From contig OX597815.1 in NCBI GenBank assembly GCA_951406725.2, positions 103,912,001 to 103,976,000 of the forward strand: a stretch of 64,000 nucleotides of DNA. The letters are read 5' to 3'. A program made the position numbers and the translations under genes. Every line of letters begins with the position of its first letter. Within the stretch, counting starts at the first letter, position 1. The DNA is from Octopus vulgaris (taxonomy: Eukaryota). A model generated the notes under the pieces. The model was given only the letters and a program-made list of their open reading frames with translations, ran no database searches and had not been told where the DNA came from. Positions 16,895 through 22,027 of the stretch are shown here, in pieces.

Positions 16895-17793
16895 AAAAAC
16901 AAGTCAAAAATAGAAAATGCTAAGATGATTTTATAGTGAATCTTTCAGTACCGGTTTCGGTCATTTTGAGACCTTTTCAACTGTAACGATTAAATAATTA
17001 AATTTTGAAAAATTTAGAAAAATTAGAAGAAAGGTTTTTTTAAAGGAATACTTCCATAGTAGTGTTCAGATATATGTGGCATTCTGCCTTTCTCTGACTC
17101 CCTTGTTTGCACTTGTGTATTCGAGGTCGTTGTGAGTTCTTGAGGGGGTGGGAGTGGGAAAATCTGGGCTGGTCAGTGGCGACCGGCAGTCGCTGCGTAG
17201 GCGTTATACTTTAAGACATTAGTGGGGGTAGAAGGTGGAGAAGTAGAAGAAGAAGAAGAAGAAGAAGAAGATGACGGTGCCGATGATGATGACGATGAAG
17301 AAGAAGAAGGAGAAGGAGAAGATGACGATGATGATGGTGGTGATGACGATGACGACGATGATGATGATAACGATGATGATGAAGAAGGAGAAGAAGAGGG
17401 AGAAGAAGAAAAAAAACAGAGAAGGGAGAATATGAATGGGTGAAGATATAGCTATTTTGGGGCGATTAGTAATGGATTCTATGGAATGTAATATTTGTGT
17501 GTGTATATATATTTCTTTTATTCTTAAGTTGAGCTATATTAATTGTTTGTCGTAGACCCGTTAAGAAGTGGCCTGTATTTTATAATAAAGAGATTTTCTT
17601 TACTTATTCGTTGTCTCGAGGTTGTATCGTCCCTAAATTGGTAGAGGGGGAAAATTCTGAAGTTTGGTGTTTTTTTGTTGGCGCAAGTATCTATGTGTTG
17701 GCTAAAAGCTATTTTTCTGTTTTGGGGAATTTTTATCTGGGATCTGTGCAGGGCCATTCGTTTACGCAAACCATTTTTTGTTTGGCCTATGTA
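16891..17793 (-). repeat. downstream (3') pseudo-LTR: end of GIY-YIG coding region plus 3' UTR
   Basis: 903 bp; differs from 21130-22027 by one substitution (gctAtttt/gctGtttt), a 1-nt A-run change and 6- and 12-nt indels in the GAA/GAT tract, as far as I can read by eye. Confidence 0.95.
16944..16986 (-). ncRNA. minimal type I hammerhead ribozyme (U3-A8 variant)
   Basis: Minus strand reads UUACAG-UUGAAAA-GGUC(UCAAAAU)GACC-GAAA-CCGG-UA-CUGAAA: stem I CAG/CUG, core UUGAAAA, stem II GGUC/GACC, GAAA, palindromic ACCGGU stem III, GUA cleavage triplet. Confidence 0.8.
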
Positions 17794-19863
17794 CTGCTCT
17801 TGACACCCGGAGCAGGTTAGTGAGTATATTAGGTTCTCCGAAGCACATGTGAAGTTGCTTTTCACTGTAAACCGTTGTCCCTGTTTGAAGGAGAACTCAG
17901 AACCCTCGATTAGATAGTCGCATATCCCGCAATTGGGTCTTCCACATTTTTTTACTGTCGGCTTCTGTGTTGAAGAGTGAATTCGGGCTTGTGTTAGAAG
18001 ACTTTTCATGGATCTAGGCTGTCTTTTGCTTTTTATGATCGTGTGTGTTTGGAGGATTGTGTTCATTCTGTGGTCTTTTTTTAGGAGGGATATGTTGTGG
18101 AGGATGGTGCCGAAGGCTTCGTTATTGAGAGGGTTGTGTGTGGAGATGTATGGTAAGGCTTTTGGTTGTAAGTTTTTCTTTGATTTGGGATGTCTCAGTT
18201 CCTTGATGTTAAGTTGAAGGGCACGTTGAATGCACTTGTCAATAAGTGAAGGTGGATAGTTCCTGGTGATAAGGGTATCTTTTAGTTCTTGTAGTCGTGT
18301 GTCTCTGGTGTTTGCGTTAGAGACTATAGTGCATATCCTTTTTGCTAGATTGAAGGGGATATTCATCCTAGTGTGTCTGGGGTGGCATGAATTGAATGGA
18401 AGATATTGCTTAGAGTCTGTAGGTTTATAGTATATGTCTGTTTCTATTATATTATTAGCTTTCTTAATGAGGATATCGAGGAAGGGAAGTTGTTGCTGGC
18501 TATATTCCATCGTGAATTGGATGTTTACGTCCAGCCCGTTTAAAATTTCCTGGAATTCTATGAGTTTTTCTATATTTTTATGCCAAAGAATGAAACAGTC
18601 ATCTAGGTATCTCTTCCAGTTGTTTTCTATGTAGATGGAGAAAGGGCTGCCATATCTTTCTAGAACCTTACGATATAGACTGATCTCTAGGTATCCTATG
18701 ACTAGGTTGGCAAAGGAGGGGGCCATTCGTGTACCCATCGCAGTCCCCGATTTTTGTCGGCAGAAGTTGTCATTGAAGGCGAAGAAGTTATTTTCCAGGA
18801 TGAATTTAACCCCTTCTATCACGAATTCTTTTTTGATGCGGTGTGGTAGTTCGTTGGCGTGATTCTCTAGCCAGAATTGGATTGCCTCTAGTCCTAGGTT
18901 GTGGGGGATATTGGAGTAGAGGTTGACTACATCGAAGGATACCAGTATGGTGTTTTGGTTTATAGTATTCGGTAGGTGATTGAGCATATCTAAGTCGTCC
19001 CTTATATAGCTTTTGACATGTTTGAGGAGTGGTTTTAACAGGGTGTCTAAAAAGTTACTGAGGCGGTGGGTTTCGCATGCGGGACCTGCTATTATGGGTC
19101 TCAATTTGAGGTCATTAGGATTAGGGACTTTAATTATTTTGTCTGTGGCTATCTTGCATGCGTTGCTTATTTTTTCACTTTTGTGGATCTTAGGTATACC
19201 GTAGAATTGGCTAGTTTTACTTGTGAAATTGGTCATATAATCATATTCTTTGTCGGTGAGCCCTGCTTTGTATGGGTTAAATATGGATTTTAGTTCCCTC
19301 ATTATTTTTTGTTGACTGTAGTTTTGTGCCTTTTCATAGTATGTTGTGTCTTCCAGCATAGAAAGAACCAAGGTTATGTAAAAAGTCGTATCCATTAAGA
19401 CAACAGCACTCCCTTTATCGGCCTCTTTGATTGTTATTGTTTTATCTTGTTTTAATTTGTTCAACTCAGCCCATTCTTTTTTGCTGAAGTTTGGTTTGTG
19501 TTTTTGTTTGTGCATATGTTGATATGGGTAATTAGATATGTGGTCACAGAAATCATCAAGTGTTTTGTTCTTACCTTTCGAGGGGGTGTAGTTACTCCTA
19601 TTTCTGGCTAACGATTCGTCCTCGTTGTATTTATCGTATAGCTCCTCAGTAAGTCTTAATTTTCTGCAGAATTCTGCGATGTCTTCTTTCATTTCGTTGT
19701 AGTTGGGGTGTTGTGGGGTGGGTGTAAATTTGAGTCCTTTGGAAAGTATGTTTATTTGGTTTGCTGTTAGTTCCTTGTGAGTTAGATTGATAATTTTTAT
19801 TACTTTTGGTTCCTCCTGCTTGTTTGGTGCTATCTTGTGTCCCTGTGTTTGCGTATTGGGTCT
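17539..19863 (-). CDS. PLE ORF2: reverse transcriptase + Cys linker + GIY-YIG endonuclease (probably a -1 frameshift fusion to ORF1; first in-frame ATG at 19692)
   Basis: Motifs IINLTHKELT..INILSKGLKFTPTP (upstream of the first ATG), EADKG, FYGIPKIHK, LRPII, SFDVVNLYSNIP, GTAMGTRMAPSFANL, RYLDDCF, LPFLDI, YYKPTD..SCHP, CGRPNCGIC, NLIYSLTCSGCQEQYIGQT, RMALH; no stop codons. Confidence 0.95.
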   Translation of the reverse strand, partial: RPNTQTQGHKIAPNKQEEPKVIKIINLTHKELTANQINILSKGLKFTPTPQHPNYNEMKEDIAEFCRKLRLTEELYDKYNEDESLARNRSNYTPSKGKNKTLDDFCDHISNYPYQHMHKQKHKPNFSKKEWAELNKLKQDKTITIKEADKGSAVVLMDTTFYITLVLSMLEDTTYYEKAQNYSQQKIMRELKSIFNPYKAGLTDKEYDYMTNFTSKTSQFYGIPKIHKSEKISNACKIATDKIIKVPNPNDLKLRPIIAGPACETHRLSNFLDTLLKPLLKHVKSYIRDDLDMLNHLPNTINQNTILVSFDVVNLYSNIPHNLGLEAIQFWLENHANELPHRIKKEFVIEGVKFILENNFFAFNDNFCRQKSGTAMGTRMAPSFANLVIGYLEISLYRKVLERYGSPFSIYIENNWKRYLDDCFILWHKNIEKLIEFQEILNGLDVNIQFTMEYSQQQLPFLDILIKKANNIIETDIYYKPTDSKQYLPFNSCHPRHTRMNIPFNLAKRICTIVSNANTRDTRLQELKDTLITRNYPPSLIDKCIQRALQLNIKELRHPKSKKNLQPKALPYISTHNPLNNEAFGTILHNISLLKKDHRMNTILQTHTIIKSKRQPRSMKSLLTQARIHSSTQKPTVKKCGRPNCGICDYLIEGSEFSFKQGQRFTVKSNFTCASENLIYSLTCSGCQEQYIGQTKNGLRKRMALHRSQIKIPQNRKIAFSQHIDTCANKKTPNFRIFPLYQFRDDTTSRQRISKENLFIIKYRPLLNGSTTNN

Positions 19864-21065: not shown

Positions 21066-21129
21066 TTTCTGTATCTCGTGTGGGTTAATGATATGTATAA
21101 GGGTGGAAAGGAACACACGAGTTGATATA

Positions 21130-22027
21130 TATGAAAAAACAAGTCAAAAATAGAAAATGCTAAGATGATTTTATAGTGAATCTTTCAGTACCGGTTTCGG
21201 TCATTTTGAGACCTTTTCAACTGTAACGATTAAATAATTAAATTTTGAAAAATTTAGAAAAATTAGAAGAAAGGTTTTTTTAAAGGAATACTTCCATAGT
21301 AGTGTTCAGATATATGTGGCATTCTGCCTTTCTCTGACTCCCTTGTTTGCACTTGTGTATTCGAGGTCGTTGTGAGTTCTTGAGGGGGTGGGAGTGGGAA
21401 AATCTGGGCTGGTCAGTGGCGACCGGCAGTCGCTGCGTAGGCGTTATACTTTAAGACATTAGTGGGGGTAGAAGGTGGAGAAGTAGAAGAAGAAGAAGAA
21501 GAAGAAGAAGAAGAAGATGACGGTGCCGATGATGATGACGATGAAGAAGAAGAAGGAGAAGGAGAAGATGACGATGATGATGGTGGTGATGACGATGACG
21601 ACGATGATGATGATAACGATGATGATGAAGAAGGAGAAGAAGAAAAAAAACAGAGAAGGGAGAATATGAATGGGTGAAGATATAGCTGTTTTGGGGCGAT
21701 TAGTAATGGATTCTATGGAATGTAATATTTGTGTGTGTATATATATTTCTTTTATTCTTAAGTTGAGCTATATTAATTGTTTGTCGTAGACCCGTTAAGA
21801 AGTGGCCTGTATTTTATAATAAAGAGATTTTCTTTACTTATTCGTTGTCTCGAGGTTGTATCGTCCCTAAATTGGTAGAGGGGGAAAATTCTGAAGTTTG
21901 GTGTTTTTTTGTTGGCGCAAGTATCTATGTGTTGGCTAAAAGCTATTTTTCTGTTTTGGGGAATTTTTATCTGGGATCTGTGCAGGGCCATTCGTTTACG
22001 CAAACCATTTTTTGTTTGGCCTATGTA
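21130..22027 (-). repeat. upstream (5') pseudo-LTR, i.e. a 5'-truncated tandem copy
   Basis: 898-bp copy of 16891-17793, including the last ~84 codons of the GIY-YIG domain (track ORF 21773-22003). Confidence 0.95.
21184..21226 (-). ncRNA. minimal hammerhead ribozyme, second copy
   Basis: Identical to 16944-16986, offset by 4240 nt. Confidence 0.8.

Follow-up and report, generated by a model that had tools for sequence, protein, structure and literature searches.

Genomic junctions at the predicted cut of U3-A8 hammerhead ribozymes in a Penelope-like element of Octopus vulgaris

We analyzed a 64-kb stretch of the Octopus vulgaris genome (hereafter the window), of which the minus strand carries a Penelope-like element (PLE) with a type I hammerhead ribozyme motif in each of its two pseudo-long terminal repeats (pseudo-LTRs). 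In other genomic copies, the 3' end of the small nuclear RNA U6 (U6 snRNA) has been joined to the element at the very bond that the ribozyme is predicted to cut, and such joins at the scissile bond were found in five families with three different 3-8 base pairs (U-A, C-G, and G-C). We favor, as a fairly probable account, that this is a young PLE whose U3-A8 hammerheads likely cut after GUA in vivo, probably as dimers, and that a host ligase likely re-joins the 5' end. Taken separately, the genomic junctions make cleavage in vivo at the predicted site very probable, and they suggest that the cut 5' end is probably ligated at the RNA level. Base-exact genomic evidence for a cut made in vivo, and for the cut end being joined to another RNA, is likely new; we found no report of U6-PLE fusions in a literature search that was thin on subscription papers.

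Cervera and de la Pena (2014; PMC4209133, available in part) described U3-A8 PLE hammerheads, with approximately 1300 matches in Schistosoma mansoni, a palindromic stem III, cleavage as dimers, and low activity. Circles made by ligation were proposed there as the template for copies longer than a unit, and the authors state that in vivo evidence was lacking. As the U3-A8 core, the dimer cleavage, and the circular template are all in the 2014 paper, the interpretation offered in the original prediction, namely that the two ribozymes pair, cut, and release a unit-length RNA that may circularize, is the published model. A review attributes dimer cleavage to Lunse et al. (2017) (PMC6765202, excerpt), and the role of PLE hammerheads in cells was called unclear by Craig et al. 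(2021; PMC8557442, excerpts). The element in the window resembles the PLE hammerheads of the excerpted 2014 paper in bearing a type I motif with U3-A8 and a small palindromic stem III in both pseudo-LTRs but differs from them in that genomic copies mark the cut base and its join to U6.

Hammerhead motifs in the window and across the genome

The original prediction placed in each pseudo-LTR a hammerhead with a U3-A8 core and a palindromic ACCGGU stem III, and we found both as described. The two motifs are identical (CAG UUGAAAA GGUC ucaaaau GACC GAAA CCGG UA CUG), the A of GUA is located at 16949 and 21189, and the predicted unit of 4240 nt from cut to cut starts 123 nt 5' of the ATG of open reading frame 1 (ORF1; 21065). 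In what follows, +1 is the first base 3' of the predicted cut (equivalent to 21188), a unit runs from cut to cut, the window family is the PLE family of the insertion in Table 1, and L-numbers denote other genomic loci that were read. The motifs fit the type I core, YUGANRA...GAAA...UH, with a Watson-Crick pair between positions 3 and 8. Hammerhead_HH9 of Rfam matches both of them with an E-value of 0.029 and 22.9 bits, short of the gathering score of 52; the Rfam models need not accommodate minimal PLE variants. By folding, stems I and II form in the monomer, stem I is predicted to run beyond 3 bp, and a gain of approximately 7.5 kcal/mol with a dimer fold is predicted when two copies pair via the palindrome. 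Dimer-dependent cleavage is a likely mode of action.

We searched the genome (2.8 Gb) with reversed motifs as the control. The exact U3-A8 motif occurs in 2097 copies versus none for the reversed motif, and 5951 further motifs with U3-A8, ACCGGU, and other stems II were found versus 82 controls, among which is a compensatory AGUC/GACU form of the stem. Variants of the exact motif at the 3-8 pair amount to 10 (C3-G8), 5 (U.G), and 9 (C.A), with every control being zero. Conservation of the motif among family copies, which the original prediction had left for checking, is therefore borne out: the motif is kept in thousands of copies, and broken 3-8 pairs are rare. The Rfam matches and the motif counts far above the controls indicate that the two motifs in the window are genuine hammerheads rather than chance matches. 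They likely cleave themselves after GUA in vivo. Only one of the 10 C3-G8 motifs belongs to the window family, and the other nine are other hammerheads. The former, L165 (G000:C13:524780-524806), is a young copy with canonical C3 and G8; it is a single case, and its double change is unexpected as each single change is seen in approximately 0.2-0.3% of copies.

Five motifs from four related families were aligned on a structure written by hand. In these few rows, 87% of cells pair, 7 of 13 pairs are changed on both sides (0-5 of 500 shuffles being as high), and ACCGGU is invariant. The sister families, of which ORF1 and ORF2 are approximately 44% and 56% identical to those of the window family (range 44-57%), keep U3-A8 and ACCGGU, while their stems I and II are paired but of different sequence. 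The window family itself is young, with 104 scored reverse transcriptase (RT) matches at 97-100% identity.

U6 junctions and 5' ends at the cut

In two stubs, +1 was found to be fused to the U6 snRNA 3' end, the U6 match (67.1 and 55.5 bits; Rfam gathering score of 44) ending on the adjacent base. A genome search with the U6 3' end gave 119 places, 100 of them listed, and we read the first 30, 40 further regions (starts of common short repeats and regions already read being left out by the printed 17 letters), and the matches of a direct search. In the window family, the five T of U6 are joined exactly to CTGAAA at +1 in seven insertions (L241, L251, L357, L364, L365/366, L376, and L377), which comprise eight arms, all with the same exact join, and end at +64 or +98. 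No U6 join was found elsewhere in the unit among the U6 ends read.

As a blind test, four other AT-rich tails capped by U6 were searched in the genome, with 15 loci for each. When unfused copies are inspected, a hammerhead cut lies directly 5' of the join base in 13, 12, 9, and 12 of the 15 loci (within 1 nt for the fourth tail); the loci include 1, 1, 1, and 2 U6 fusions, respectively, and the rest are truncated or changed copies. The cores are U3-A8, U3-A8, C3-G8, and G3-C8, and a PLE protein is encoded nearby in two of the four families but none within 1.5 kb in the other two. Furthermore, five inverted inserts (L365/366, L380, L395, L400, and L412) carry U6 on both arms with the same join base, which favors a single pre-joined RNA serving both arms. 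We regard it as likely from these junctions that one RNA serves both arms of an insert.

Hammerhead cleavage leaves a 5'-OH, and the U6 3' end with its U tract is joined here to a site expected to yield such an end, as in chimeras of the RtcB type. The earlier claim that the cut end can be joined is thereby seen in the form of a join to another RNA. In the U6/LINE-1 (U6/L1) chimeras of Moldovan et al. (2019; PMC6789731, excerpts), the U6 3' end is likewise attached to the RNA of a retroelement, after which the chimera is copied into the genome, and RtcB joins the cyclic phosphate of U6 only to RNA with a 5'-OH, before retrotransposition. The 5'-OH of U6/L1 comes from an unknown nuclease acting at variable sites according to the same excerpts, whereas the join reported here falls on a single base that the ribozyme of the element itself determines.

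If the RNA were cut but never ligated, the RT could jump from +1 to the 3' end of its own RNA or to U6, and the joins would be made at the cDNA level. Such jumps would suit the joins that are not exact at the cut but lack a few upstream bases (L244, L247/248, L249, L253, L260, and L262), the chimeric repeats in L062, the filler bases at stub and inversion junctions, and the joining of U6 to many other RNA starts. On the other hand, two independent jumps would be required to place U6 at the same base on both arms of five inserts, the exact five-T joins in all arms of the window family speak against a jump, and ligation comes before copying in the excerpted account of U6/L1 (PMC6789731). We hence consider jumps without ligation unlikely.

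We searched for the sequence from +1 without the bases just upstream and read all of the 43 genomic places found. In total, 24 of them are true 5' ends at the cut, 11 of which have no matching base upstream; they are stubs of 64 or 98 bp or arms of inverted inserts, and the young, near-perfect stubs L256 (100%) and L263 (98%) begin at the cut. The control positions gave 4 true ends out of 5 matches, 2 of them exact, at -21; 10 true ends (1 exact) out of 20 read among 37 matches at -8; and 10 true ends (2 exact) out of 20 read among 29 matches at +5. The excess at the cut has a rough p of 0.008 for true ends and 0.003 for exact ends, with the exposure estimated by ourselves. Stub copies as well as U6 fusions begin exactly at the equivalent of 21188, in agreement with the cut position given in the original prediction. 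Apart from these, L237 is an inverted insert, both arms of which start at approximately +1 and are linked by a palindromic filler of 28 nt.

The motif could also be an inactive relic retained as a protein-binding or promoter element, and its score under the Rfam threshold, its short stem III of 2 bp, and the slow cleavage of such motifs in vitro reported in the available part of PMC4209133 would be in line with this. Yet U6 is joined exactly at the scissile bond in as many as five families, which between them have three 3-8 pairs; this is hard to obtain without cleavage, and we judge a relic very improbable. Rather, these joins would record germline cutting by weak variant ribozymes, with the cut end being a substrate for a ligase or a jump, and the joining of the cut end is the step that the circle model had lacked. 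Should the extended account given further below hold, U6 pseudogene junctions would show, with single-base precision, where active ribozymes cut in any PLE-bearing genome; a test on U6 junctions needs a genome only and is applicable to assemblies of fish, amphibians, molluscs, and flatworms.

Other U6 junctions were noted as well. The loci L463-L477 and L418-L432 represent further U6-marked hammerhead variants, with a G3-C8 core and a core in which GCAA replaces GAAA. U6 is found on tails resembling the first post-cut bases of families C and B in L383 and L396, of which the divergence is too high for an exact test. The U6 3' end is joined to the U6 5' end in L354 and L360 (tandem or circular U6), and in L415 two inverted copies of U6 alone sit in (TA)n, as if mobilized by the PLE enzyme. 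Many U6 3' ends (L340, L343, L350-L353, L355, L358, L359, L363, and L367) are followed, after several bases that vary, by the start of a common short interspersed repeat.

Copy ends, repeats, and the RNA template

The element in the window ends not at the downstream cut but about 60 nt beyond it. Among the best 30 matches to the 3' end, 22 stop at +64, 7 at +98, and 1 reads on. Such ends are fused to (TA)n via CATATAT-like microhomology, and RNA contigs join (TA)n at 21091. The same two 3' ends are seen in longer loci except for one irregular end (L067), and no insertion ends at the cut among the 3' ends read in the best 30 matches and the longer loci. Families B and C also have two ends each, at +45/+87 and about +142/+183, respectively. 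In inverted inserts of which both ends were seen, leaving out the complex insert L183/184, one end is short and the other is long in 22 of 22 cases (14/14 in the window family, 2/2 in B, and 6/6 in C), for which the probability by chance is at most 2e-7. Together with the inserts bearing U6 on two arms, this rule points to the use of one RNA for both DNA ends, which would account for the tail as well as for the inverted inserts. In one sequencing run (X17), short contigs pile on the tail (21124-21181) and not on the hammerhead; they possibly belong to another short repeat sharing the tail, and contigs cannot show a start.

These end points recall the anole Poseidon element PAc (Frangieh et al., 2024; PMC11167929), in which the tail is delimited by two internal RT starts 3' of the hammerhead, cutting and extension take place on both DNA strands, targets are AT-rich, and a dimer via a long N-terminal helix is predicted. 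The PAc starts show neither target homology nor a strand difference; in the octopus element, microhomology to (TA)n exists at both end points, and the two are invariably used together, one per end, in inverted inserts. As priming lies inside the unit, no long copy can be made without crossing the cut. For the same reason, a linear cut monomer yields only stubs since the RT starts at +64 or +98, a point not considered in the original prediction.

The favored account would run as follows. A transcript through both repeats would be cut at one or both ribozymes, giving a 5'-OH and a 2',3'-cyclic phosphate, and an RtcB-type ligase would join the 5'-OH to a cyclic phosphate, usually that of its own 3' end (a circle) and rarely that of U6. 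The RT-endonuclease would then nick (TA)n and prime inside the 5' untranslated region (UTR) of the same RNA, at +64 for one DNA end and at +98 for the other. Unjoined RNA would lead to run-off at +1 and a stub of 64 or 98 bp, whereas on joined RNA the cut would be crossed and copying would go more than once round, resulting in partial tandems, arrays, and inverted two-arm inserts.

In 35 of 36 measured pairs, the upstream repeat begins anywhere between 78 nt before the cut and entire additional units, and the loci L081-L086 are arrays of 2 to 3.3 near-identical units. We compared the two repeats within and between elements in 31 partial tandems (L066, L067, and extra array units left out). The repeats diverge by 0.77% within elements versus 3.2% between elements, the own partner is uniquely the closest in 11 of 31 and tied in 13 of 31, and a variant shared with other elements is present in both members of the pair in 124 of 147 cases (118 of 127 when the chimeric L062 is set aside). 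The copy in the window has four private variants, each of which is in both repeats. Shared variants fit one RNA copied more than once round, be it a circle or a self-jump, and inherited variants in both repeats thereby uphold the earlier proposal of more-than-unit copying from a single RNA. Amplification of a uniform array or gene conversion may also be the source of matching repeats.

Full-length copies might instead derive from uncut read-through RNA, with a promoter in an upstream repeat or array, cleavage being a side reaction or a brake that yields stubs and U6 fusions. The pseudo-LTR of Penelope acts as a promoter, unprocessed RNA was the main template in vitro (PMC11167929), arrays of several units exist, and copies with dead ribozymes spread. 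The best 40 ORF1-bearing copies all cross the cut as well, albeit the query was biased that way. A linear source, however, can neither lengthen the upstream repeat nor equalize the repeats, and yet most inherited variants are in both, and thousands of copies preserve the fold through compensatory changes. No common 5' start, the signature of a promoter, was seen among full-length copies, of which the extents are continuous. We consider uncut templates somewhat unlikely, and the circle has an even chance of being the main template of full-length copies. That the element has no promoter of its own is improbable.

Experimentally shown circles are known from non-LTR retrozymes (Cervera and de la Pena, 2020; PMC7229834, excerpts), which share a type I hammerhead and tandem insertion with the present element and undergo monomer release and circularization by RtcB. 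Retrozymes are short and non-coding, whereas we deal with a coding PLE of 4 kb, for which a circle is inferred. The same genome contains a non-LTR retrozyme family: the loci L131-L160 (e.g., G000:C1:20002279-20004541) are tandem arrays of approximately 359 bp in a PLE-like inverted layout, and their hammerhead combines a canonical C3-G8 core with the ACCGGU stem III also seen in the window.

Several points weigh against cleavage followed by ligation as the regular route. First, PLE hammerheads are slow in vitro in the published record available to us (PMC4209133), stem II of family B is closed by a U.U pair, PAc cleavage needed protein and was dispensable for insertion in vitro, and no PAc RNA reads ended at the cut (PMC11167929). 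Second, plain 5' ends are in only modest excess at the cut, about twofold, the pile-up having been weakened by the -8 and +5 controls, and in 19 of the 43 places the upstream side is retained and the sequence at the cut deleted or changed; in 11 of these 19, a deletion removes GAAA and stem III. The siblings L176 and L178 on different chromosomes share C3.A8 and other marks. Judging from these deletions and siblings, an inactive ribozyme at the copied end does not keep a copy from spreading, and cleavage is not needed for every insertion. Third, the U6 fusions of the window family come from older subfamilies (tails approximately 84-95% like the references), L364 and L365/366 may stem from one event, and an RT jump from +1 to U6 would give the identical join. 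Fourth, the upstream and downstream repeats of L062 are from two different subfamilies; this locus may have arisen by recombination or by insertion into an older copy. Finally, the RNA data are contigs of eight runs, which reveal neither ends, strand, nor circles.

An extended version of the favored account is possible, though short of an even chance: the in vivo cut would lead to an RtcB circle used as a rolling template, a dimeric RT-endonuclease would prime both broken DNA ends at two fixed positions on a single RNA molecule, U6 fusions would be mis-ligations, and the enzyme would be produced from a helical ORF1 by a -1 frameshift like that of gag-pol.

Organization of the insertion and the junction of its ORFs

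The insertion consists of one unit preceded by a 5'-truncated partial copy (Table 1). Its repeats of approximately 900 bp each are 97.7% identical when microsatellite gaps are counted, and none of the 488 unmasked columns differs. A (GAA/GAT)n microsatellite in the 3' UTR (17225-17425 and 21470-21655) differs in length even between the repeats of one insertion.

Table 1. Features of the PLE insertion in the window.
Feature	Position	Strand	Remarks
Whole insertion	16886..22027	-	PLE; one unit preceded by a 5'-truncated partial copy (1.2 units)
Upstream repeat (pseudo-LTR)	21125..22027	-	End of the RT-endonuclease ORF, 3' UTR, hammerhead, first 64 nt of the unit
Downstream repeat	16886..17793	-	Short (+64) tail at its end
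Upstream type I hammerhead	21186..21223	-	U3-A8, ACCGGU stem III; predicted cut 21189/21188; cut base marked by U6 fusions in other copies
Downstream type I hammerhead	16946..16983	-	Identical to the upstream one; predicted cut 16949/16948
ORF1	19830..21065	-	411 aa; without Pfam family
ORF2 open frame	17539..19896	-	785 aa stop to stop; first ATG 19692; -1 to ORF1; RT (DKG, YLDD), CX4CXXC linker, GIY-YIG
U UUU UUA G	19862..19869	-	ORF1 phase (Phe-Leu), within the ORF1/ORF2 overlap; putative site of -1 frameshifting, with a splice acceptor as the rival reading
Internal end point +56..+64 (CATATATAT)	21125..21133	-	Shares microhomology with the (TA)n target; priming likely starts here first
Internal end point +92..+98 (ATACATA)	21091..21097	-	34 nt further, PLE 'tail'; likely second priming site
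Host (TA)n microsatellite	16790..16890	.	Abuts the 3' end of the element

The element has the marks of an endonuclease-bearing PLE, namely an RT followed by a C-terminal GIY-YIG domain, relatives annotated likewise, pseudo-LTRs, tandem and inverted arms, and a tail of 30-40 bp. In ORF2, Pfam RVT_1 was matched with an E-value of 2.4e-8 and GIY-YIG with an E-value of 0.001, the latter under the cut-off; the best 120 relatives of ORF2 are 557-803 aa long. The sequence CGRPNCGIC in ORF2 represents the CX2-5CxxC linker that precedes the endonuclease in Neptune and Nematis. According to the excerpts of PMC8557442, these PLEs also share with the present element the RT with C-terminal GIY-YIG, partial tandems, inverted 5'-truncated arms, the 30-40-bp tail often at one end only, and (TA)n targets. 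The canonical PLE described there has a single ORF, unlike the window family and three sister families, in which ORF1 and the RT-endonuclease ORF overlap in the -1 frame. An optional frameshifted ORF1 is mentioned in the legend to Figure 1 of Craig et al. (2021; PMC8557442), and a two-ORF Neptune without frameshift is described in PMC12602865 (excerpt).

The conserved region of ORF1 (residues 92-243) is predicted to form long helices and is followed by a low-complexity linker. No Pfam match was obtained for ORF1, an Atlas match reached only 0.76, and the structural model had a pLDDT of 58.5. Only two relatives were found in a search that did not include longer or fused forms. Five aligned proteins, two of them from other sources, end ORF1 with FL-x7-DT(R/G)W, the W being a stop in the window family. 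The helices of ORF1 may resemble the N-terminal helix of the single-ORF anole protein.

The -1 overlap is found in every listed junction and in families B, C, and D, save for single copies with an indel. Its recurrence in other copies and sister families rules out that the two ORFs arose by a chance indel in the copy of the window. A slippery heptamer of the X XXY YYZ type lies in the upstream frame inside the overlap, and U UUU UUA G is in ORF1 phase across four families of the genome (the window family, L218, L232, and L233). The first AUG of ORF2 in the window family sits 3' of the conserved KGLKFTP motif, and the ORF2 AUG codon of family B is AUA, CUG, or UUG in the other families. These features make it reasonably likely that ORF1 and ORF2 are joined by a programmed -1 frameshift, and the fused product would restore the usual PLE layout. 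No stimulatory fold 3' of the heptamer is shared by three families (-2.5, -6.5, and -13.0 kcal/mol over 73 nt by pseudoknot-free folding).

Splicing with TTTTTTAG as the acceptor is the disfavored alternative for this junction. In the contigs of the eight runs, no RNA contig joint ends at TTTTTTAG, a pattern search for spliced genomic copies gave two matches, neither of which is spliced, and candidate donors in ORF1 lack a conserved phase. Genomic PLE copies retain introns, so that the scarcity of spliced copies is not decisive. A contig joint that drops 230 nt of ORF1 (20406-20637) was seen in three runs; its ends are not GT-AG, and a deleted genomic copy is the probable source.

Among 140 of the 182 reading frames of the window, which were scanned, there was no host exon but only transposon fragments, so the orientation of read-through cannot be told from the host context. 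Other transposon remains in the window are an RT fragment (5122-5349, minus strand), a weak helix-turn-helix of the Mos1 type (8507-8938, minus strand), and a transposase of the Tc5/pogo type (40656-41312, plus strand).

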